From IMG/VR virus record IMGVR_UViG_3300002494_000025, positions 71,375 to 135,374 of that record: 64,000 bases of DNA; one strand, 5' to 3'. This document shows, one piece after another, positions 11,241 to 58,715 of the stretch. The translations under genes were made by a program, and so were the position numbers. How positions within the stretch are numbered: the first letter of the stretch is position 1; each line of letters begins with the position of its first letter. The notes beneath the pieces are model-generated. The model was not told the DNA's origin. It ran no database searches and was given only the letters and a program-made list of their open reading frames with translations. Origin of the DNA: a virus.

Positions 11241-12863
11241 TCAAATTTTCAAAATCCAATCATAGTCATTATTGGTTATGTTTTCAGTCTCATTATTTAC
11301 TTCTTGTTGTTTGTTTTTATTAATGATTTTTTTACTCTCTTTTAAGTTTATTCTGAGTATTGTGTTTTCAATATGTTCAAATGTCTATTTTAAATTAATC
11401 CGATTTTGTTCAATCAACTGATTTCTCTAATAATATGCAAATGACAACTACATTACAAGGTCGTCATTATATCCATGTTTTGCTTGTGGTTTACCACCAC
11501 GGTATACAAAGACTAGTAACTCACTTATAATTCTTTCACTTCTGATATTTTCTGGAAATTCAGTAACGTATTCCTTCATCTATTTCAATATTAATGGTCG
11601 GGTAATTGCAGTAGTAATGATACCGTATGTACGAGTTTGGGATCGTTTTTCGAGATCTTGTGTGTTGATTTTCTATTCTTCTTTTGTACTGGAGATGTAT
11701 TTGTCGATGAACAAATTTGAATAACCTTTTTCACGTAGACGTCTTGCAACCTATAATCCCCATCCACCGGTAACTTCTATCTATATCGACTATGTGTTGT
11801 AATATTTACCAATCTCTATTAATACATCCTAATATTCAACATCTGATATATGTTTACTTGTAAAATCCTATACAACTTTACCATCTTCGTCAATTACAAC
11901 GAACTAAGACTAGTCATTTGACATTCCAGAAGCAACGTCTACGCCTATGATATACTATTTATTTTCCTTCACTTCTTCATACATATAAACTTCCCAACCG
12001 TTAATTTCAAATGAACTTATTGGTTTTTGTTGTGACTTTTGTAATTTTTCTAGTGTTACAGAATCCAAGTATGTGTCATTAGATGAAATGAAATGTAACT
12101 CTAATTCTTGCATTATTGCAAGATGGTCATTACCAAGTATTTCACATTGTTGTTTGTACCATGTATCGTCATAATACGGAATATCTCTCCAGTGGAATCT
12201 GAACAATGTATATGGTGGGTTATCTGAATTTATCTACTATTCATAATATCTATAGTAATCATTATCCACACCATTGGGTGTTGAATTGAGGATAATACCC
12301 CATGGAATACCAGAATTCTATATCGTAGCAAGTGTTGGTGCTAACTATTTTAACTATTCTTCAAGATTTGGGACAAACTACTACTCATCTACAATAACAG
12401 TTGACAATCTAAAAGAACGAAACGGGTTATTCGTATTACCCTATCGGATTACACTACCGTTAGAAAAATGGAGAGACTTTTTAAGAGGTCTCTCCAACTT
12501 AGGTAACCATGAAATTTTTGATAATTCGGAAATCTCATACATTTCTTTTATGTCTTGTAAGAATTGGTTTGCTTTATCTTGTTCAATTGATAAGATACCG
12601 ATATAGTATCTACTATAAAACAACTACAACCACAGTGATAATGCTTGTAATGTAGTGGACATACCTGTTTGTCGTGATTTTAACACCAACATCTTATGTT
12701 TTTCCAACCATAGTCGAATAAATTCTTTTTGTTTTTCAAACATTTTAAATGGTACAACACCCATTCTTTGATTAAAAATTTTTATATAATTTTCAATAAA
12801 ATAAATGGGGTCTGTTTTACATTTTAAATATTCTTGTATGTTATCGAGTTTTGTATTTTCCAT
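11241..12863 (-). CDS. terL: Terminase large subunit (T4 gp17-like), 540 aa, about 22 in-frame TAG
   Basis: KSRQTGMST (Walker A), VIVDE**F (Walker B), ILNSTPNG, IGVDVASG, GYNDDLVM*L; TGA stop. Confidence 0.95.
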
Positions 12864-23600: not shown

Positions 23601-26118
23601 TGTAAATAATCTGTCAACCACAACATTTGATACATCTACTTCACACCTATTTAAAATTAATGGCGGTAATAGATTATTAATTAATACCACCAATGTTGAT
23701 ATAACAGTTTCAAATCTCAAATAGTCTGTAACAGATTTCAATGTTGGTAGTGGTACTACATATTTAAATCTCAACACTACCAACAACTTAGTGAATGTTA
23801 CAACAAAAGACTTTAATGTAACAACAAGTAATATCACATCAAATGTTGATAATTCATTTATATAGAATGTAAAAAATCAATTCACCGTTAGTGTTAGTGT
23901 TAATAATGGTATATCACAAACAATTAAAAACGTGTTAAGTATTTCTAATTCAAGTAATACATCTAAAGTTTTACTAACTGTAGACAATATTGATACCGAT
24001 GTCACATCATCACTTATTGTACGTAAGGGTTCGTATAACTATGTAATAGTAGATACACCCAATAACACACTTACAACACAAGCAAATAATGTGTACGTCA
24101 ACTCTAATACATTCTATGTAACTACTTATATTAATAATGGCATACAACAAATAACCACTACTGTTGTAAATATTACAAATACAAATAATAAATAGTCCTT
24201 GTATATCACAACTAATAACTTTAATGTTATATCTGATAATCTAAATACAACAATCAGTAATGTAATAACTAAAGTATCTAATACTTGGACATTGATGAAA
24301 AATACGACAGAATATATCAATGTCAATTTATTAACTGATACAACAACGTCATTAACAGTCAACAACTTTAACACAATTTCTCTAACATCAAATAACCACT
24401 CAATCAAAACAGGTAGTGTTGAACGAGTTAAAGTAGATAACACCAATGTAACTATCAACACAAATACATTATCAATTATTAATAACGGTAATACATTTGT
24501 TACTACAAATATTACACTCGATAAAGGCACCTATACCTTTGATAGACTCAGTAATTTCATAGTCAAGAAAGTTGGTACAACAAACAATGAACTGTTCAAA
24601 TTGAGTGAAACAATATTGAGTGTATCTAACCTGACAACAGTTGATATTAACGTACCAGACATAAAACTTAGTGGTACTAATACCAACATTAACTCAACTA
24701 ACTTGTATGTTACAAGTGATATAAACTTTAAATCAGGTAAAGTAATGATAAACAATGATACACTAAAAGCTTCTGGTCTTATAAACATTGATACAGATGT
24801 AAGTAACTATTACTTCAAAGTTGGTGGTACAAATAGGATTACACTTAACGGTACAGACTTAACTGTGTCATCTCTTAACAATGTAACGTTTACAACAACT
24901 AACTTTACAACAAATGTTACTACATTTATCATCAAAAAAGATTCATTGGAGTATATTAAAGTTACAAATTCTAATACTACATAGTCAACTGCAACATTAA
25001 CAATTGGTAATGTGAACAACATATTAGTTAATTAGGTTACTAATACAGAATTGAGGATAAATGATATTACTAAATTGTCACTTACAGCATCCAATCTTGA
25101 CATTACACAGTCCAATGTTATATAGAAAACTAACAACTTCAGTGTTTAGACAACTGGTGGTAGTAATATATTCACTGTTGATACAACAGGTAACAACATC
25201 AGTGTTAATACATCTACTGTCAACATCAATACAAATACACTTACATTTAGAACATATGTTAATACAGGAACATCGACAGTTTAGTCCAATGTATTAACCA
25301 TACAGAATGTAAATAACACAACACAAGTAGCTATTAATGTTAGTAATACAAATGGATTTATAGTCAATGGTAATACAGTATTTAACACAAGTTCACTACT
25401 TGTAAAAAATAGTACTACAGAATATGTCAATCTTATCGCGACGGGTACAACCACTCGATTTATTGTAAATAACTTCAACACAACTGAATTCAATACATCC
25501 ACATCACATACGTTTAAAGTCAATGGTAATAACCGACTCGAATTGGATATTACCAATGTTAACGTTTATACAAGTGCTACACTCAGACTTGATACACCAA
25601 CAATGTTAATTACAAGTGGTGGTAATACATTCGTAAATACAACAGTCTCAACAAATACAGTAAGTATAAAAATTAATAAATTAAATACACTAACTATCAA
25701 TAAAGATACTACGTCAAACAATACTCTTGTATTACTCAATAGTTCAAAACTATAGATTAATAACTTAACAAATGTGTCCATATCTACGTCTTCTGATATT
25801 AACATCACAACACAAAATGTGAATACAGAATTTAACGGTTCATACATTGTCAGAAGTACTACTACACCATCTGTAGAGTTTGTTAATATAAATACAACAT
25901 CAAATAACATTACACTAAAAGGTAATACAATTTCGATACAAAAAACAGATGGTACACAAACTGTAAATATTAATACATAGAATACAGGGACAACAAATCC
26001 GACCACACCAACAGTTACTGTAAACGGCACTATCAAAACAAATGTAATAAATCTTAATGATAAGGTATATATCCAGTTCAATCCAACAACAAATGAATTG
26101 GAATTTGTGTTCGTATAA
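20674..26118 (+). CDS. Long tail fibre/adhesin with T/N-rich beta repeats, 1814 aa, TAG=Ala
   Basis: Nine listed + strand ORFs share one frame; C-terminal IQFNPTTNELEFVFV typical of fibre ends; TAA at 26116. Confidence 0.8.
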
Positions 26119-26283
26119 TTTATGTAACAATAACATGTATTAACAAATTTGTTAACGAGAATTTCACTATTTTACGTTGTCATAATTTTCAAATTAAAAC
26201 TTAATATTGAAATCCGTATATTGTAATATTCGATTTTATGGATGTAATAATAATTTTTCATAATTGAAGGGGGGAAATATACA

Positions 26284-28152
26284 ATGACTAAAAAATCATC
26301 ATGGATTTATTTTGAGACATTTGATAATTCCGTAGTACCAGAAGAACCATTTGTTACAACAACTACACAAAATGTAGTTCCGTTTGCAATGTATTTTTAT
26401 TCAAGAAGCGGAACATCCGGACAACCTGTTCTTGTAAATTTCAAAACGTTTAGTGAAATATTCAATAGAGTTGAACCATACGATCATATTACTAAGAAAT
26501 CGTTACAACTTCTTTTGAAAACTGGTAAACAAGCCTATGTAATCAACCTTAACAAAACTGGATATGGATAGTTCTATGTTACCTTAACATCAAATGTGAC
26601 TAAAATTTTAAATGTTAGTGGACAAGTACAGAGTATATCAAGAAAACTTATTGGTGGTGGTATTACCGTTTCGAATACATATACACCACAGTCTGTTGTT
26701 CAAACAAATCCTGAACAGATTATTAATTTAACAACAGGTACTGATCTCACAACACCAAGTCCCGACGGTCAACCCAACACAATAAACAGAACTGCAAATT
26801 TTATGTATGTCGAAGCTAAACAACCAGGTCAGTACTTAAGAGATCTGTAGTTTGAATTCAAATTGAGACGTGTTACCGGTGTGTCTAGTCAACCTGTTTA
26901 TCACATGTCTATGAATATCTATAAATTAGAACCAGTTGATACATATACAAATAGTGGAAATACATATACACACTTTAAACATGGATAGTTGTTAGAATCA
27001 ATTGGTGGTTTTATATCAAAAGATATTGTAGATCAAACTGGAGTTTCACAATATATTGTTGATATTGTAAACAAAAACAGTAAATACATAAATATCTTGA
27101 TACCAAATACGATTGTTGAACAACTAAATATTCTTGAAATGGAAGATCAAGAAATAGTTATTCGAACATGGGGGACAACAGATAATAAAGTTGTTTCATC
27201 TATTGCAAATACATTACCAGAGTATCTCAAATCTGACAACACACCAGAATATAGACATCCTGTATTTATAGAAAATTATAACTATGATGTTACAACTTAT
27301 GATCTCACATCACTTGTTGAAAACTTTGATGAAGTAACAATATTTAAATACTTTGTTGAAGGTGGGTTATCAAGTCTACTATCTTCATAGAAGTTTAACA
27401 ACTACATGTCGTATATAACAAAACTGGCAGAAGAGTTGTTCTTTGTGGTGTATAGAGATATTCCAAATCCATCAACATAGGTTACAAACTTGGAAAATTA
27501 TATACTTGGATTCACCAGTGATACAATTAGTTCATTTGTGTAGTTCTTCTTCCCATGGGTTGTTACAAATAAACCAACCAATTACGGTGACACCATAACA
27601 GTTCCACCATCTGTATATGCATAGATGATTTCAGACGATATAGATAATACACTTGGTGCACATGTTCCAGCATCTGGTACTACATAGAAAATTAATGATG
27701 CGATTGATCTTTCTTACAAAATGAAAAAAGAACAAAGAGACTTGATTTATGAACATAACGTCAACCCAATCTCAAAAATATTCGATAATGGTATATTTAT
27801 CTGGGGTAACAAAACTGCATACGATAAAAACTCCAAACTCAGAAGTCTCAATGTTCGTAGGATGATTAATTTTGATATTGTTCAACCACTTAGAAAGTTC
27901 TTAATCAATTATCTGTTTAAACCGTTCTCACCGGTTTATGTTGTTGAAATACAAAACTATCTTACAGATTTGATAAGAAATTTGAAAAATAGTGGTAAAG
28001 TTGAAGATATGATATTCGATGTTAAGGCAAACACTAATACAAATGAATTAATAGTTAACCTGTACATTAAACCGATTGGTGCAATCGAATATATCTCAAT
28101 TAACCTGAATATACTTCCAACAAGTGGTGAAATTACAACAACACAGTAGTGA
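26284..28152 (+). CDS. Tail sheath protein (gp18-like), 622 aa
   Basis: V*FFFPWV, VPPSVYA*M, RDLIYEHNVNPI, IWGNKT, LNVRR; ends TAG-TGA, so the true stop is TGA. Confidence 0.92.
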
Positions 28153-37300: not shown

Positions 37301-38896
37301 AATTTAGAGAAAAACATAGAACTTTTATCCGTTAAAAAGAAAACCACACAAACATGGTTCTTTATACCAATTAGTGAAACAATAGAGGAGATAAATCCAT
37401 TTGTAACATTGACAACAGATTTATTTAGTAAACTACCAATTCTATTTGATAAAGTCATTAATGGGTTTGATAGTTTAATTACACAACTAGTATCAAGTGA
37501 TACATTTAAGAATATTGCAACAGATAATAAAACGATTATAGAAATGACAAAAATATTATTTTCTTCTGTTCTAGATATGATACTAAAAACTGTAGTTGGT
37601 ACACTATTGACAAATGCAATTGAAGGAAAATTGAATGTAATTCAAAAAAGACTTGTTACAGAAACAGTTACTACAACCAATGAATCTGGTAATACTGTAG
37701 TACAAACTATACAGAAAGAAGTATCTGAAAAAATAAACCCATATATTGATACTGTGTTTACACCAATTCTAAGGAGACTACCACAAATATTTGAATTGAT
37801 TTTTGGTACAACAGATAAACCAGGTGCGTTTGACAAAATACTTAATAGTATTGATATTACAAAAATCGTAACAAACGACATTACACTACAGACAGAATTT
37901 ATTAAGAGTATTTTTAATTCAACACTTGACATGATTTTTAAAACATTATTACCCGGGTTAATTAAAGCAGGTATATCCAGGAAGTTTAGACAAACAACAA
38001 CAACGACAACCGGGTGGTGGCTCTGGTAGAAAACTGAAACTAAAACAATGGATAGTTTCGTAGAAAATGTGTAGAAACCAATCTTAGAAAAATTACCAAG
38101 TATATTCAATCGTATATCAGGTGTGTTTGGAACTATACTTGATAATCTGAATGTTAATGATATGTTTAAACAGGATACAGATTTACCTAAAACATTTGTA
38201 AAAAGTATTTTCGATAACACAATTGTTTTTATGTTCAATACTTTAGATAATTTACTCAACACCGAAAGTTCATGGAGTATTGATAGATCGTTATTAGATA
38301 CCATCAATGCTACAAAAACATCACTTTTGACAAGTTTTCAAAACATGAGTACTGCAATTGATACTATTATCTCATCAATTAGTACAACAATACAATCTAC
38401 ACAACTTGATACAATACATATTAACAATATCGTAAGTAATCTTGTACCAAGTATTTCAAATGTTTTCAATCACATGATTACAATTATTATGGATTCGGGG
38501 GTTTTGGATGCATAGATTAACGTAAATGTTGTAAACGGACTTTGGAATGTACTTGAATAGTTTGTAGATGAATTATCATCACATGCACCAGATATCGCAG
38601 GTTCTCTGTTTGGTTCTTTAACGTTTAATTTTGATTACGACGAAATGAAACGAAAGTTAACAATGACATTCACTAACATATCTGAAATTACAACGGAGTT
38701 CGAACGACAAAAACTCGAACTTATGACAGAATAGAATACATATTTATCCCAGATACAATCAGATGTATAGGAAATTAAAATATTACTTAGTCAAATTAAA
38801 GATAATATCCTTAACAATAATAACAATAATGGTCGACAACAAGTAGTATACCAAAGTAGAGATGTTGTTAACTATATAACATCCGGATTGAGATAA
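31382..38896 (+). CDS. Tail tape measure protein, 2504 aa, TAG=Ala
   Basis: Twelve listed ORFs in one frame; amphipathic W/F/P repeats; GGYTGSGRTDEI*GVVHKGEYVIP** motif; TAA at 38894. Confidence 0.85.
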
Positions 38897-39035
38897 TTAT
38901 AAATTATGTAAAATATATAAAAACGTTTAATAATATGTATATTTTATGTATCATAATAAAACTTAATAGTGTAAAATTGTTTTTCATTTCGTTAAAAATT
39001 ACAACAATACACTTATAAAGCGGGGTGATATATCA

Positions 39036-39449
39036 ATGATAATAAATGAAGAAGTTGATAAGGCAATAGAACTAACGTAGGAGATAAATGCAAGAGTTAT
39101 CGATAGTTATGAAACGAAGATAAGTGAATTACAAAACGCGTTAATGTTGTAGGTGGAAATTATTGATACATTGTTACAGAAAGTTGAACCAACAGAAACT
39201 GAGTTCATCGAGTACCTGAAAGGTAAGATATCTCAAATTAAATCGGTTCTTGAACCACAACCACTTATCTCTAAACCTACACAAAATGAAAATATTGTTG
39301 GTACATCAGTATTTTCAGATGATGTACAAACTTAGAAATAGGAAGAAGATAATGGAGATAAAGAGGAAGATGAAGAAGTTGATCACTTTGAAAATGTTAA
39401 AAATGAATTAGAAGAGAAGCTGTTAAAGTGGTTACTAGATAGTAAATAA
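39036..39449 (+). CDS. Prohead core/scaffold protein candidate (137 aa, 4 TAG)
   Basis: Acidic coiled-coil ORF immediately upstream of the capsid gene; RBS GGGGTG; TAA stop. Confidence 0.6.
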
Positions 39450-39491
39450 TCTACAAAATCAACTAATTTAGTTAAGAGGGGGTATATAGCA

Positions 39492-40931
39492 ATGACAAAA
39501 GATACAGTTGGTTTAATACTTGAAAGAAATTGGAATACTTACAAAAACGTTATTGTAGAGAGTGCATTCAAAAATTATTATGGTAAACAGACAAATAACG
39601 TCCAGAAAGAAGTATTAAAGATATTACTTGAAAATACAAAAAGGAACATGATTACTGAAGGTCTTACAACATCTACACAGGCATCTATTGCAGTTCCTGT
39701 TATTCTTGGTCTTACAAAGAAATTCTTCCCAAAACTTATTGCGAACGAGATCGTTTCTGTTCAACCACTTACAAGACCAACTGGTATTGTGAAGTTCAAG
39801 AAAATTAGATTCCAGGATGGTCGTGAGCTTGCAAGTGATAAAACAGATGGTCTTCTCTCAACTGATACATCATTTGGTACTGAACAGTATCAATCACTTA
39901 CACAACGTGTTTCTGTATCAATTGCAGGTGGTGCATCAACAACTGTTACATTGAATGGTGTACAACCACCATTTAAGGGTGTACAGATTGGTTCATTTAT
40001 GGTTAAATTACCAAATGGTATAACAATACCTGAAGTAAATGGTACCATAGTTGTAGATGAGTTTAAGATTACAATTAATTACTACACTGGTGTAATTACT
40101 GTTCAAAATACGGGTAATAGTACCACCCCAGTTAGTAAAACGTTTGATGTTATTTACAACACCGTTGCATTTGAAACGAATTCCCCAGACACAATCGGTA
40201 GAGTATTCTTTGACTTTGAAAACATTCCAGTTAATGCAATAACAAGAAAACTCAAGGCCAGCTGGACATATGAATTCTTAGAAGATATTCAGGCCGAACT
40301 TGGTGATCTTATCAATTTTGAGCAGGAAGCATTTGAAGATGTTTCTGCAATAATTGCTGCTGAAATCAACAGAGAAATAATTATGGATATAATCAGTGGT
40401 GTTCTTTCGTATGGTAGTAATATTGTTGAATGGCACTATAATCCAGCAACATTGAGTGGTAACAACTGGTTAACAGCAGAAGCATACTTCAGAACGCTTA
40501 TACACAAAATTAATGAGGTTGCTGGTAAGATCACAAGAGCAACAAAGAGATTTGAACCAAACTTTATAGTCGTTTCACCATACACAAAACAGTTCATAAT
40601 TAATGGTCTTACACAATATGAATGGAGACCATCCGAGAATGTTACTGATGCACTTGACTATGCAAAGATTGGATTTGCACTCAGTGGAACAATTTCTGGT
40701 AAATGGAATATGTACGTAACACCAAGTATTCCTGATGGTTATATTATTGTTGGTTATAAGGGTTCTGGTGTTGCAGACAGTGGTTATGTCTATGCACCGT
40801 ACATTCCATTGAAGGCAGTACCAATCACATACGAATCAATTCCTGGTCTCTACTTCTACACAAGGTATGGTAAAACTATGTACTCCCCATGGTACTACGG
40901 TCTTGTAAAGATTCCTGAACTTCTTTCATAA
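39492..40931 (+). CDS. Major capsid protein (T4 gp23-like)
   Basis: PKLIANEIVSVQPL..PTG, RKLKASWT, EINREI, VGYKG...YAPYIPL; no internal TAG. Confidence 0.95.
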   Translation: MTKDTVGLILERNWNTYKNVIVESAFKNYYGKQTNNVQKEVLKILLENTKRNMITEGLTTSTQASIAVPVILGLTKKFFPKLIANEIVSVQPLTRPTGIVKFKKIRFQDGRELASDKTDGLLSTDTSFGTEQYQSLTQRVSVSIAGGASTTVTLNGVQPPFKGVQIGSFMVKLPNGITIPEVNGTIVVDEFKITINYYTGVITVQNTGNSTTPVSKTFDVIYNTVAFETNSPDTIGRVFFDFENIPVNAITRKLKASWTYEFLEDIQAELGDLINFEQEAFEDVSAIIAAEINREIIMDIISGVLSYGSNIVEWHYNPATLSGNNWLTAEAYFRTLIHKINEVAGKITRATKRFEPNFIVVSPYTKQFIINGLTQYEWRPSENVTDALDYAKIGFALSGTISGKWNMYVTPSIPDGYIIVGYKGSGVADSGYVYAPYIPLKAVPITYESIPGLYFYTRYGKTMYSPWYYGLVKIPELLS

Positions 40932-40949
40932 TAATTGACACGATTAAAT

Positions 40950-46659: not shown

Positions 46660-46837
46660 GGTGAAACTTACACCCTCGTTCTTTTTGATTTTCCTGGTAT
46701 AAACTAACCAGGTTATATCAATTTGTAGAGAATTTTGTTGGGGATTTGTTGGGGATTTGTTAGGATTGTTGGGGATTTGTTGGTGAAACTTACACCCTCG
46801 TTCTTTTTGATTTTCCTGGTATAAACTAACCAGGTTA
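46660..46837. repeat. 56-bp direct repeat (46660-46715, 46782-46837) flanking TTGTTGGGGAT tandem units
   Basis: GGTGAAACTTACACCCTCGTTCTTTTTGATTTTCCTGGTATAAACTAACCAGGTTA occurs twice; 4-5 copies of TTGTTGGGGAT lie between them. Confidence 0.9.
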
Positions 46838-47108
46838 CGTCAATTTATTATAACACTTTTTGTTTTCTTTGTCAAGACAAGACAATAAGCAATAACAATA
46901 AGTATAAAATTGTAATAAAATAAAAATACAAATTTCAACATTATAGAATGTGTACAATGACAATGTAAAACAATTATGTAACTTAATTGAGATAGTACTA
47001 TCTTACTGTGGAAAGAAAAACAATGGAACAACATATTTGTCAAGATCAAAATTAAATAAAGATTGCAAATCTCAACATATTATTATATGAAACGTGTGAT
47101 ATAGATGT

Positions 47109-47184
47109 GGGGCCGTAGCTCAGTTGGGAGAGCACTACCCTTGCAAGGTAGAGGCCGTGGGTTCAAATCCCATCGGCTCCACCA
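47109..47184 (+). tRNA. tRNA-Ala(UGC)
   Basis: 76-nt cloverleaf GGGGCCG...CGGCTCC ACCA, anticodon loop CTTGCAA, G3:U70. Confidence 0.95.
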
Positions 47185-47356
47185 GATTGAACAACATATT
47201 GATACAATGGATATGAACCTTGAGAAATAAGGGCTTTTTTGTTTTAAAAAAGAGGTTCTACAAGAGGAAAAAACAATGGAACAATATATTTGTCAAGATC
47301 AAAATTGAAATAAAAATTGCAAATCTCAACATATTAATTATGGAGTGTGTGATATC

Positions 47357-47432
47357 GGGGGTGTAGCTCAACTGGGAGAGCAGCGGTCTCTAAAACCGTC
47401 GGTTGCGGGTTCGAACCCCGTCACCTCCACCA
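47357..47432 (+). tRNA. Amber-decoding tRNA (anticodon CUA) with alanine identity, tRNA-Ala(CUA)
   Basis: GGGGGTG...CACCTCC-A-CCA gives G3:U70 and A73; anticodon arm GCGGT-CTCTAAA-ACCGT with CTA at 47390-47392; normal D and T arms. Confidence 0.93.
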
Positions 47433-47438
47433 GATTTT

Positions 47439-47798
47439 GGGGACGAATGGTTTCGACGGAGGTAAGTCCTCTTCGGAAGCGGGTCGAGGTTACCTACCGT
47501 CCTCGTAAAAAAACGGTAGGAAAAAAATAAGTGCCAACGAATACATTCCTCTTGCTGCCTAATTAACAGGTAGCCATCCACTACAAGGTTGGACCAGTAC
47601 CTTGTAGTTGGGTGTGACTCAACTGGTCCGGTAACTCAGACGCGTCTCACGTCTGATGTTACTTTACTCAATGAGACTGGTCAATCAGTAGTTTGTCTGT
47701 GGACGACTGATTGATGAGATTTAAATCACAGACTGTACCCGGAGATGCCGAGGTGGACTTACTTTCGGACGTGGGTTCGATTCCCACCGTCTCCACCA
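47439..47798 (+). ncRNA. ssrA: tmRNA (SsrA), tag (A)ANEYIPLAA
   Basis: 5' GGGGACG, 3' GGGTTCGATTCCCACCGTCTCCACCA, 360 nt; tag frame GCC AAC GAA TAC ATT CCT CTT GCT GCC TAA at 47533-47562. Confidence 0.93.
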
Positions 47799-47891: not shown

Positions 47892-48383
47892 ATGGTAAAA
47901 ACAATAAGAGGAAACATTATTTTTAAAATGGATGTTAATTTTAGTGAATTGCATGATGTGGCTGAATTTTTAGAATTTGAATTCACTCGAGGATTCTAGA
48001 AACATGTTGAGATATCAGTTGTATCACCAAAGATAGATAGTGTTCTGATGAAGAAATTGGCAAAAACATTAGCACCGTTGAAATCAAAAATAAACATAAA
48101 GTGGAATGGAGATACGTTGTTGATCACATTTGATGTGAAGCCAATGTACGGATCGTATCCCAAAACATCGATTGATTATCTATATCCATTATTTGATGTA
48201 ATTGAAGAATTGAAAAATATTGATCCTGACATTCGTTTTTCTGCTACTGTATCAACATCAAAAAATATGGACATAATAAGTCCTGATATTATAATTGGCT
48301 ATGCAGAAGATTTACAAAAATATGCAAAACGTTGGATAGAAAATTGGGAAGTGGTATATCATAAACCATACGGAGCTATCTAA
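47892..48383 (+). CDS. Hypothetical protein, paralog 1 (163 aa, one TAG)
   Basis: RBS plus ATG at 47892 in frame with ORF 48048-48383 across F*KHVEI. Confidence 0.75.
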
Positions 48384-48615: not shown

Positions 48616-49086
48616 ATGGCAAACACAGTAAGAGGAAAATCTAATTTTAAAGTTGATGTCATTTTTAATGAACTACGTGATGTGATTAATTTTCTATACT
48701 TCAGACCTGAATTTTAGAAACATGTCGAAATAACAATTGTATCACCAAAGATAGATAGTGTTCTGATGAAGAAATTGGCAAAAACATTGGCACCGTTGAA
48801 ATCAAAAATAAACATAAAGTGGGATGGAGATACGTTGTTGATCACATTTGATGTGAAAGAAACGTACGGATCGTATCTCAAAACATCGTTTGATTATCTA
48901 TATCCATTATTTGATGCAATTGAAGAATTGAAAAATATTGATCCTGACATTCGTATTTTTGCTACTGCATCAGCATCAAAAAATTCGGATATAGTATATC
49001 CTGAAGACATAATTTCGTATGCAGAAGACTTACGAAGCTATGCAAAACGTTGGTCGAAAAATTGGAAAATAGTATATCATATATAA
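48616..49086 (+). CDS. Hypothetical protein, paralog 2 (156 aa, one TAG)
   Basis: Highly similar to 47892-48383; TAG at the aligned position. Confidence 0.75.
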
Positions 49087-49146
49087 ACCATACTCATACT
49101 AAACTATCTAATGAAATGTTAATTATAATAAGGGGGGGTATCTATT

Positions 49147-49614
49147 ATGGAATATACAAGTAAAGGCAAAATGATAATGTATTTTGATGATGATTCCAAA
49201 ACAATATTACATGGTGAACTTGTATTCAATGGATGGGGTACACTTGAACAATTTATTACAGATGATAATATTATATTTACAGTAGTTGAATCAACAGAAT
49301 TGTTCGAAAATATCCATTATAGTAAGATAGTATTTGATGAAGATTCTGTAACTAAAATACGAAGAAAAAATCCTACACTGTACAAAAAGATTGAGGAATA
49401 TGTGGATAAAGAGTTTTATCTTGCACTCATCGATAAAGCATTGAAATATGTGAGAAAAGAACACCCAGAATTTGAAACAGAAGAATTTGAAGAGGCGGCT
49501 GATGAAGTATTGGAAGAGTTAAAGGAAGAATACAAAGAGTTTGATGTGGTTGATAAAATAAATTATGTCCCAATGGATGTCAAAATAATTGAACTTGAGG
49601 ATGAAAATAAATAA
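49147..49614 (+). CDS. Hypothetical acidic protein
   Basis: Intact 155-aa ORF with strong RBS, followed by a terminator at about 49645-49675. Confidence 0.75.
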   Translation: MEYTSKGKMIMYFDDDSKTILHGELVFNGWGTLEQFITDDNIIFTVVESTELFENIHYSKIVFDEDSVTKIRRKNPTLYKKIEEYVDKEFYLALIDKALKYVRKEHPEFETEEFEEAADEVLEELKEEYKEFDVVDKINYVPMDVKIIELEDENK

Positions 49615-57761: not shown

Positions 57762-58715
57762 TTATGTACGTAATTGTTGTCTATCAAGTACGATTGTTTG
57801 CTTCTAAGAGCATTTTATAATACTATTGTTTAATTTTGTATTGAGTACAACATATGGTTGGGCATATACAGCTTCATCGGGTACTTGGTATATATCCAAA
57901 TATGTTATTTGTGTAATAGGATTATCTTTTGTAATTGTAACTTTATCTAAACTCCACACATTTGCATTGTACATATCATTTATAATCTTGGAGTTGTTGG
58001 TATTAAAAAGTTTAAAAAACACGTACTATTCCTATGTATATTCATTTGATAGAGGATCTATATGAAAATTTGTATTAACTGATATACCGTCAATATTATT
58101 CTTTATTTGTTGAAGTGGTGTTGGTATTTGTTCATAATGTTCTTCTTTTACAATTTGTGGATATGCAATCCAGAATTCTTGACCGTCTGGGACATTTGTA
58201 AATCGAACACCATATTGTACATTGGAAGACGTGTTGGGTGTAAGTGACATTTCAACTTTTGTCCATTCGTTTGCTCTGAGACTGTATGTTCGTGTAGCGG
58301 TTGCAACAACAGTGTTACCGTAATCTGGGGTAAGGTAAGCTAAAAACGATAGTGTAAGGTCCGTACTTGTTTTGATATAAAAACTGAGAATGTATGTTAC
58401 TCCCACATTAACGGGTATGTATGGTGAATAGTTATAAATATATGTGTTACCTTCTACATCACGTTTAGCTCTACCATAAAAAACTTTCCCCCAGACAGGA
58501 TCATCATACTGAGTGGTGGAATACCAGTATGTTGCACTATTCCAATGTGTCCATTTACTCCAATCCTGACTTGCTCCAGGTTCGTATTGGTCTATTATGT
58601 TTGTTAATTGATATCTGGGGTTTAGTTTGAGGTTGGTTATATTTATCTTTTTTAACTACATTACAAACTATTTTAATGGTTGGTTTTGGAAATTAACAAC
58701 TTTAGTAACACCCAT
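57762..58715 (-). CDS. Virion protein with carbohydrate-binding-like domain (317 aa)
   Basis: RBS plus ATG at 58715; joins ORFs 58032-58406 and 57804-58022; IPVNVGVTYILSFYIK...WTKVEMSLT pattern. Confidence 0.6.

Follow-up and report, generated by a model that had tools for sequence, protein, structure and literature searches.

A putative alanine-charged amber suppressor tRNA in a TAG-recoded phage

An alanine acceptor stem on a tRNA-Trp-like anticodon arm

The 64,000-nt stretch of DNA analysed here (the window) covers positions 71,375 to 135,374 of the IMG/VR virus record IMGVR_UViG_3300002494_000025 and encodes a tRNA with the anticodon CUA, named tRNA(CUA) below, in a region where long reading frames appear once TAG is read through. 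The original prediction, made from the letters of the window, had described an amber suppressor that joins an alanine acceptor stem to an anticodon arm like that of tRNA-Trp, and this observation is confirmed. The further proposals that the tRNA would be charged with alanine, that TAG would mean alanine in this phage and that no phage synthetase would be needed are well supported by the identity marks of the tRNA and by the proteins. The gene and its main positions are as follows (window positions, unless given as contig positions, which count along the whole record):

47357..47432, + strand: tRNA(CUA) with the alanine identity set (ARAGORN, Rfam and sequence; stem pairs all standard)
47359, 47426, 47429 and 47430-47432: G3, U70, A73 and the encoded CCA of tRNA(CUA)
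47390..47392, + strand: anticodon CTA (tRNA positions 34-36) in the loop CUCUAAA (sequence and ARAGORN)

At 47357-47432 (+), ARAGORN reports a tRNA of 76 nt that has the anticodon CTA, and the Rfam model RF00005 matches this gene at 67.0 bits (E=1e-13; gathering score 29). With a score above this cut-off and a 7/4/5/5 cloverleaf, it is a canonical class I tRNA. Its acceptor stem consists of G1-C72, G2-C71, G3:U70, G4-C69, G5-C68, U6-A67 and G7-C66, followed by A73 and an encoded CCA; the D loop is AACUGGGA, with G at position 20, the variable loop has 5 nt, and all of the stem pairs (21/21) are standard. The CUA anticodon with G1-C72, G2-C71, G3:U70 and A73, as originally described, was borne out in every detail by the sequence, ARAGORN and Rfam. 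The marks of a substrate of alanyl-tRNA synthetase (AlaRS), by the elements defined in E. coli work, are G3:U70, A73, G2-C71 and G20, and tRNA(CUA) has all of them. Within its anticodon arm, the stretch GGTCTCTAAAACC is a single base (C35 to U) away from the arm of tRNA-Trp genes of Thermotogota and actinophages, in agreement with the prediction of a one-base distance from the bacterial tRNA-Trp arm. It is also unlike the arm of the neighbouring tRNA-Ala(UGC), as had been claimed, the two matching at 7 of 17 positions.

ARAGORN labels the gene as tRNA-Pyl, a label that derives from the anticodon only and was dropped. tRNA-Pyl is characterized by a 3-nt variable loop, a 6-bp anticodon stem and a small D loop without G18G19, and is ruled out by the 5-nt variable loop, the 5-bp anticodon stem and the 8-nt D loop with GG of tRNA(CUA). 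Across the 135,374-nt record, ARAGORN finds three RNA genes, for tRNA-Ala(UGC), tRNA(CUA) and tmRNA, all of them inside the window, and the gene at 47357-47432 is the sole CUA tRNA.

Alanine as the probable meaning of TAG and the putative product of charging

With translation table 11, the window breaks up into many short frames. Reading through TAG opens frames of 2504, 1814, 1421 and 1001 amino acids, which carry 41, 26, 24 and 14 TAG codons, respectively, and reading through TGA in the window yields no frames comparable to these. The recoded part as a whole holds 385 in-frame TAG codons in 57 of its 91 open reading frames (ORFs), the 34 ORFs free of TAG being mostly replication genes. tRNA(CUA) has in this respect what marks the amber suppressors of recoded phages, namely a CUA anticodon together with many in-frame TAG codons that open long frames.

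The meaning of TAG was tested on proteins, independently of the tRNA. The gene that carries most of this test is the following:

11241..12863, - strand: terminase large subunit, with 22 in-frame TAG codons

The terminase was compared with 114 homologues of 28-35% identity and 440-700 amino acids in length, drawn from 150 listed representatives after the two closest (P0241 and P0242) had been dropped. Alanine is the top residue at 12 of the 20 well-covered TAG columns vs 6.1% of 474 columns (binomial P=2e-10), and the log-likelihood is -28.6 for alanine vs -70.0 for serine. Where at least 50% of the homologues have alanine, the phage has TAG in 8 columns, GCN in 4 and another residue in 3. The result from PhoH is weaker (10 TAG codons, 9 of them covered; 103 homologues, the 17 closest dropped), with log-likelihoods of -27.7 for alanine vs -36.5 for serine and with alanine as the commonest residue at 2 columns, glycine at 2 and five other residues at 1 each. 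Together, the two proteins give log-likelihoods of -56.3 for alanine, -106.5 for serine, -110.1 for glycine, -128.0 for threonine, -139.7 for glutamine, -159.4 for lysine and -172.4 for tryptophan, which comes last of the 20 amino acids. By this computation TAG means alanine in the phage proteins, and the assignment from proteins to which the original prediction had appealed is recovered by a wide margin. The capsid gene, with 26 alanines, contains no TAG; in P0124-P0127, which are related to it at 55-58% identity, a database 'Q' coincides with an alanine of the phage 6, 7, 7 and 9 times, at least as often as with a Q. This fits a reading of these residues as putative TAG codons translated by table 15.

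AlaRS recognises G3:U70 and not the anticodon, as Hou and Schimmel and McClain and Foss reportedly established. In Fervidobacterium islandicum, of the genus to which the putative host is related (see below), G3:U70 occurs in 3 of 46 distinct tRNAs; all three are tRNA-Ala, and all three also have A73, G2-C71 and G20. Because G3:U70 is restricted to tRNA-Ala in this genome, the alanine marks on tRNA(CUA) are not expected by chance. The host tRNA-Trp carries A1-U72 and G73 and the host tRNA-Gln U1-A72 and G73, whereas tRNA(CUA), with G1-C72 and A73, has neither set. The F. islandicum genome encodes one AlaRS; neither an AlaRS nor a release factor with a PCRF domain is encoded on the 135-kb record. 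Given the full alanine identity set, a record without AlaRS and a Fervidobacterium genome with one, the claim that the phage needs no synthetase of its own holds up well. In E. coli, CUA versions of natural G3:U70 tRNAs translated amber codons efficiently, and alanine was among the residues inserted by these allo-tRNAs (Mukai et al., PMC5389517).

Several points weigh against an alanine-charged suppressor. Eight of the 20 terminase TAG columns are led by other residues (K, K, V, V, I, G, D and Y), and 7 of the 9 PhoH columns are not dominated by alanine. The record is 76% complete according to CheckV, which means that a synthetase or release-factor gene may lie off it. Both charging by the host AlaRS and insertion of alanine are inferred, the former being a well-founded inference. 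Moreover, U35 in the CUA anticodon is a handle for the glutaminyl- and lysyl-tRNA synthetases in E. coli, so that some mischarging is possible, and a CUA mutant of tRNA-Trp (Su7) is charged with glutamine in that species. If tRNA(CUA) were likewise charged with glutamine, lysine or tryptophan, TAG would be read as in table 15 or otherwise, which is how public pipelines have rendered the TAG of relatives, as Q. This is most improbable in view of the log-likelihoods of these three residues, all far below that of alanine, and of a first base pair and a discriminator base that differ from those of the host tRNA-Gln and tRNA-Trp. Less probable still is a decaying or non-translational tRNA-like element, with TAG read through by some other means: tRNA(CUA) has a perfect cloverleaf, an encoded CCA and a conserved leader, and the record, with its hundreds of in-frame TAG codons, has no other CUA tRNA. 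In addition, among four aligned suppressors of the alanine type, 84 of 84 stem cells pair (100% pairing) and 7 of 21 pairs show compensatory change on both sides, pairs 1:72 to 4:69 being invariant; in this alignment, pairs 1:72 to 3:70 of the two metagenomic members (L240 and L241) were fixed by the search pattern, and nothing was fixed for the member from Aeromonas phages. tRNA(CUA) is thus very probably a working amber suppressor that is charged with alanine by the host AlaRS and lets the prophage read TAG as alanine.

Leaders, the recoded region and its putative host

tRNA(CUA) lies in a small cluster of RNA genes, two of which are preceded by similar leaders:

47016..47108, + strand: leader of tRNA-Ala(UGC), with a promoter-like core at 47059-47085
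47109..47184, + strand: tRNA-Ala(UGC) (ARAGORN; Rfam 73.4 bits)
47269..47356, + strand: leader of tRNA(CUA), with a promoter-like core at 47313-47339
47439..47798, + strand: tmRNA with the tag ANEYIPLAA (ARAGORN; Rfam 204.3 bits)

The tmRNA starts 6 nt past the CCA of tRNA(CUA). It is 82% identical to the tmRNA of F. islandicum, whose tag is ANEYVPLAA (the phage has I for V), and the positions that differ are mostly A or T in the phage. The tmRNA, too, is of an AlaRS substrate type. The phage tRNA-Ala(UGC) and the Fervidobacterium (F. islandicum) tRNA-Ala(CGC) agree at 68 of 73 positions and lie together in a tree; the phage gene has a body of the host tRNA-Ala(CGC) type with the anticodon switched to UGC. 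GCA is by far the top remaining alanine codon, with 97 of 129 GCN codons in TAG-free genes.

The leaders of tRNA(CUA) and tRNA-Ala(UGC) match at 80 of 88 positions, whereas the tRNA bodies match at only 53 of 76. The 27-nt promoter-like motif within them (TTGCAA/TTGTAA ... AACATATTATTA) was counted over the whole record from the leader core, allowing up to 6 mismatches in 27 nt. It has 13 copies vs 0.1 expected in shuffled sequences, all inside the recoded phage. Two of them are the tRNA leaders and the others lie as follows:

contig 36239, 41005, 49982, 60319, 64315, 64896, 79795, 80432, 122655, 123344 and 124233: promoter-like motif, 11 sites outside the tRNA leaders

Nine of these 11 copies are found 1-72 nt upstream of TAG-free ORFs, a class that makes up 34 of the 91 ORFs (P=0.0034). 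Since the motif precedes TAG-free ORFs, tRNA(CUA) seems to be part of a set of genes whose translation does not require it. Such an arrangement is consistent with a switch whereby the TAG-bearing structural genes would wait for tRNA(CUA), with promoter function and timing as its presumed elements. Immediately before the RNA gene cluster, two direct copies of a 65-nt sequence (46660-46724 and 46782-46846; 97% identical) flank short TTGTTGGGGA-type tandem repeats at 46735-46786. Contigs of the DNA sequencing run X1 end at this stretch of 65-nt and tandem repeats.

The record, classed by IMG/VR as a provirus, falls into three parts, the middle one of which largely coincides with a region poor in the dinucleotide GpC:

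1 to about 25.6 kb: left part, 42% GC, standard code, phage structural genes
about 26-130 kb: middle part (~105 kb), 28% GC, TAG-recoded
right end: NrdD and MutS, 36-40% GC
contig 27000-130000 (window 1 to about 58700): GpC-poor region

The MutS adjoining the prophage is 84-85% identical to that of Fervidobacterium, and the likeness of the tmRNA and of tRNA-Ala(UGC) to those of Fervidobacterium ties the phage to that host. The TAG-recoded region would be the prophage of a hot-spring bacterium related to Fervidobacterium. A protein with a CBM_4_9 domain is encoded at the left junction (contig 25017-26717), with a paralogue (57762-58715) at the opposite, right-hand end of the recoded region; the two-phage layout of the record could be due to tandem prophages, to recombination or to an assembly join through a shared segment. 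The GpC odds ratio (rho) is 0.26 in the recoded region vs 1.33 in the left flank and 0.89 in the other flank. Alanine is scarce there, at 1.45% in TAG-free genes and at 1.06% plus 1.99% TAG in TAG-rich genes, and the codons AGC and GGC are nearly missing.

Two stretches of ~34 nt (40582-40615 and 48301-48336) are matched by contigs of run X1 that continue on either side into a CRISPR-repeat-like 30-mer, so that spacers against the phage seem to be present in some organism of the sample. This 30-mer has no match in F. islandicum H-21; matches with 3 mismatches occur in 2 of 151 Thermotogota genomes, which is too weak for naming a host. In the RNA-library run X2 from the same sample, contigs fall on the capsid gene and on the tmRNA; contig depth is higher on the capsid gene (38585-40940) and on the gene at 48918-49593 than on their neighbours, and the DNA run is flat. 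This library may contain DNA, and none of the contigs listed covers tRNA(CUA), which is uninformative either way as another 43 pieces exist. These data hint that the phage was active in the sample, and contig depths cannot rank its genes. Runs X3 and X4 were set aside: their matches, restricted to parts of tRNA-Ala and tmRNA at 90-95%, come from genes of other organisms. In viral contigs, a search for close phage relatives with the single capsid protein found none, and one with an alignment gave only matches of 25-27%.

Ancestry, relatives and a working model

Of all matches to tRNA(CUA), the Sup-CTA tRNA of T5-like Aeromonas phages is the best (85.5% over 76 nt, or 62 of 73 positions without the CCA), whereas the tRNA-Ala(UGC) genes of these phages and of the present one share only 48 of 73. 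Its carriers are Akh-2, AhSzq-1, AhSzw-1, vB_AdhS_TS3 and AhP_Mru1, in which the gene appears in GenBank as tRNA-Sup-CTA, tRNA-Pyl or tRNA-OTHER or is unannotated. The Aeromonas tRNA shares with tRNA(CUA) the marks G1-C72, G2-C71, G3:U70 and A73, the D arm, the variable loop and the proximity of a tRNA-Ala(UGC) gene. It differs in a D loop that is one base shorter, in an anticodon stem of GCGGA/UUCGC instead of the Trp-like GCGGU/ACCGU, and in its location inside a cluster of about 30 tRNA genes. In the Akh-2 terminase, as in the present phage, TAG aligns with alanine: at its 14 in-frame TAG codons, 33 of 56 homologue cells hold alanine, and at 5 of the 14 sites all four homologues do (one gene; standard-code homologues T5, KIT04, 234P1 and ValS_X1). 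Otherwise the Aeromonas phages are unrelated siphoviruses of a gammaproteobacterium, with 44% GC around the tRNA. No discussion of the identity of this Sup-CTA tRNA was found in a literature search.

Suppressors of the alanine type are rare. The strict pattern (alanine acceptor, Ala-type D arm and CUA) occurs nowhere in 2.9 million viral contigs and twice in a metagenome collection; with the D-loop length left free it gives one match, the Aeromonas phage. Without the D-arm constraint, it matches 8 stretches, 4 of which are CUA tRNAs by ARAGORN, with 3 distinct sequences. Further carriers are the following:

L285 9155-9230, L286 2777-2852 and L291 4697-4771: CUA tRNAs with G1-G4, U70, C71, C72 and A73 in viral contigs

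The L285/L286 tRNA is most similar to tRNA-Ala genes of phages. The metagenomic contig L241 (1-8360) carries an alanine-type CUA tRNA and is TAG-recoded, with 58 TAG codons in an 1851-amino-acid frame and 28 in PhoH, whose log-likelihood is -75.4 for alanine vs -102.0 for serine. L241 has 43% GC, is alanine-rich and has normal GpC (rho 1.09), so that TAG as alanine also exists without a GpC purge. By its features, tRNA(CUA) can be assigned to a small set of phage-borne amber suppressors of the alanine type.

The original prediction had further derived tRNA(CUA) from tRNA-Trp, and this part fared less well. The anticodon arm is indeed Trp-like (13-15 of 17 positions for Trp, 7-9 for the compared tRNA-Ala genes and 5-10 for Gly), but the rest of the body is no closer to Trp than to Ala or Gly: outside the arm, Trp matches at 42-43 of 56 positions (75-77%), Ala at 43 (77%) and Gly at 46-47 (82-84%). 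Where a Trp lineage would show a body closest to Trp, G73 and A1-U72, tRNA(CUA) has a body that is not, A73 and G1-C72. In searches of 50,697 phage records by BLAST, it matched 879, and 60 evenly spread rows comprised 47 tRNA-Trp, 2 Gln, 1 Arg, 1 Met, 1 Asn, 1 Pyl (CUA), 7 unannotated (one of which, H54, is tRNA-Trp by ARAGORN) and no tRNA-Ala; this tally is redundant, as 666 of the 879 records are Mycobacterium phages. Among the best 30 loci in 81 Thermotogota genomes, 22 are tRNA-Trp (87-89% over positions 6-58) and 7 are tRNA-Gly(UCC) (81-82% over 3-69); a single tRNA-Leu locus was discarded as a re-alignment artefact. The same BLAST with the neighbouring tRNA-Ala(UGC) returned tRNA-Ala at full length, and with the L285 suppressor it returned tRNA-Ala in 8 of 10 records, which does not bear out a Trp-like D arm for L285. 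In a tree of 58 tRNA rows, L240 and L241, both metagenomic suppressors, fall together with tRNA-Ala(UGC) (support 80/95). Together, these contrasts set tRNA(CUA) apart from suppressors that are plainly derived from tRNA-Ala. The earlier claim that it is not a duplicate of tRNA-Ala stands as to a recent copy of its neighbour, given the divergence of the two bodies behind leaders that are nearly the same. The phylogeny that had been proposed as a check does not place tRNA(CUA), 32 of 55 inner branches being open.

Two accounts of this origin have to be weighed. According to one, a tRNA-Trp gene mutated from CCA to CUA and its acceptor was then rebuilt (A1-U72 to G1-C72, C70 to U, G73 to A and C20 to G). 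The arm, the BLAST results in phages and Thermotogota and the distance from Ala-derived suppressors speak for it; the even matches outside the arm, the excess of Mycobacterium phages and the presence of the same arm on many non-Trp bodies speak against it, as does a cost of 8.2 log-likelihood units for holding the suppressors with Trp vs 2.2 with all Ala, neither of which is rejected. Descent from tRNA-Trp is therefore possible but rather doubtful. According to the other, the body is of Gly or Ala type, or came ready-made as a suppressor passed from phage to phage, and the Trp-like arm arose by convergence, as such an arm decodes codons starting with U well. In viral contigs, 62 distinct CUA tRNAs have an identical 15-nt arm, together with many acceptor types and with variable regions that are long in 29 and short in 33; none of the 62 combines G3:U70 with A73. 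Because the arm itself was the criterion for inclusion, these tRNAs demonstrate that many kinds of body carry it, but not how frequently this happens. The arm is also found on the CUA tRNA of Sinorhizobium phage Phosso, which has a different acceptor stem without the alanine marks. Because the arm sits on such different bodies, it may be convergent and may reflect a functional optimum for reading codons that begin with U, not ancestry; suppressor arms reportedly tend towards that of tRNA-Trp, in line with the 'extended anticodon' idea attributed to Yarus. Moreover, the T arm and acceptor pairs 4-7 match the host tRNA-Gly (19-20 of 22 positions in the variable and T regions), including a 23/25 match to tRNA-Gly(GCC), a gene upstream of the host tmRNA, and the nearest relative is the alanine-type suppressor of another phage. 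Against this, gaps of 3-5 positions among Gly, Ala and Trp outside the arm are within noise for 56 positions, and the approximately unbiased (AU) tests reject no grouping (p=0.35 with Trp, 0.23 with Gly and 0.35-0.47 in the various groupings with Ala). Convergence is a serious candidate, if still short of a probable one. The ancestor may have been a Trp, Gly or Ala tRNA, and descent from Trp is one of at least two live options.

Compared with known systems, tRNA(CUA) resembles the table 15 recoded phages (crAss-like, Lak and others), which have a phage CUA tRNA, in-frame TAG concentrated in structural and late genes and a host that uses the standard code (Borges et al. 10.1101/2021.08.26.457843, Cook et al. 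PMC11210395). In these phages TAG is assigned to glutamine, and here to alanine; the acceptor with AlaRS marks also distinguishes tRNA(CUA) from the viral CUA tRNAs that share its arm. The word alanine does not occur in the main texts of these two papers, and no report of TAG as alanine in phages was found in the main texts searched; supplementary tRNA tables may bear on this. UAG is decoded as alanine by an alanine-type tRNA(CUA) in the mitochondria of Hydrodictyaceae and Neochloris (Zihala and Elias 2019, PMC6821328), the same change from stop to alanine as is proposed here. However, the algal tRNA clusters with canonical tRNA-Ala(UGC) or tRNA-Ala(CCU), a grouping that the tree does not show for the body of the phage tRNA(CUA), and the algal change took place in an organelle and is tied to an altered release factor, whereas here it would concern a phage on a standard-code host. 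UAG as alanine is thus already established for algal mitochondria, and the phage version is apparently new. The allo-tRNAs of Acidobacteria (PMC5389517), finally, likewise combine a natural G3:U70 with a non-alanine anticodon. They differ in having acceptor/T stems of 8/4 or 9/3 instead of an ordinary 7/5, and in a CUA anticodon that was engineered, without a recoded genome, instead of being natural and accompanied by 385 TAG codons.

In the working model, tRNA(CUA), behind a conserved promoter-like leader that also precedes TAG-free genes, would probably be made before or together with the genes that do not need it. Co-transcription with the tmRNA located downstream is probable, and host RNases would excise the tRNA. 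The host AlaRS would read G3:U70 plus G2-C71, A73 and G20, ignoring the anticodon. tRNA-Trp decodes the neighbouring codon UGG, and the CUA in a Trp-like loop and stem would pair with the UAG codons (385 in 57 ORFs), where alanine would be inserted, in agreement with the computed identity of TAG columns and alanine columns in homologues. A bolder and rather unlikely extension is that this tRNA and the Aeromonas suppressor represent a portable TAG-as-alanine module that moves between unrelated phages whose distant hosts belong to Thermotogota and Gammaproteobacteria; in the present phage, it would be tied to the promoter type of TAG-free genes as a timer of TAG-bearing late genes and would also supply alanine codons free of the purged GpC. 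Since G3:U70, and not the anticodon, is what every AlaRS reads, such a module would work in any host, and it would then be the most host-independent route for a phage to switch its code.

Stop recoding in phages is currently annotated as TAG to glutamine or TGA to tryptophan; here, the marks on the tRNA and the proteins both say alanine. If TAG is alanine, the public translations of this clade show Q in positions that should read alanine. A simple rule may follow, namely that the meaning of a recoded stop would be predictable from the tRNA alone, and as the nearest relative of tRNA(CUA) sits in cultured Aeromonas phages, the claim is directly testable.

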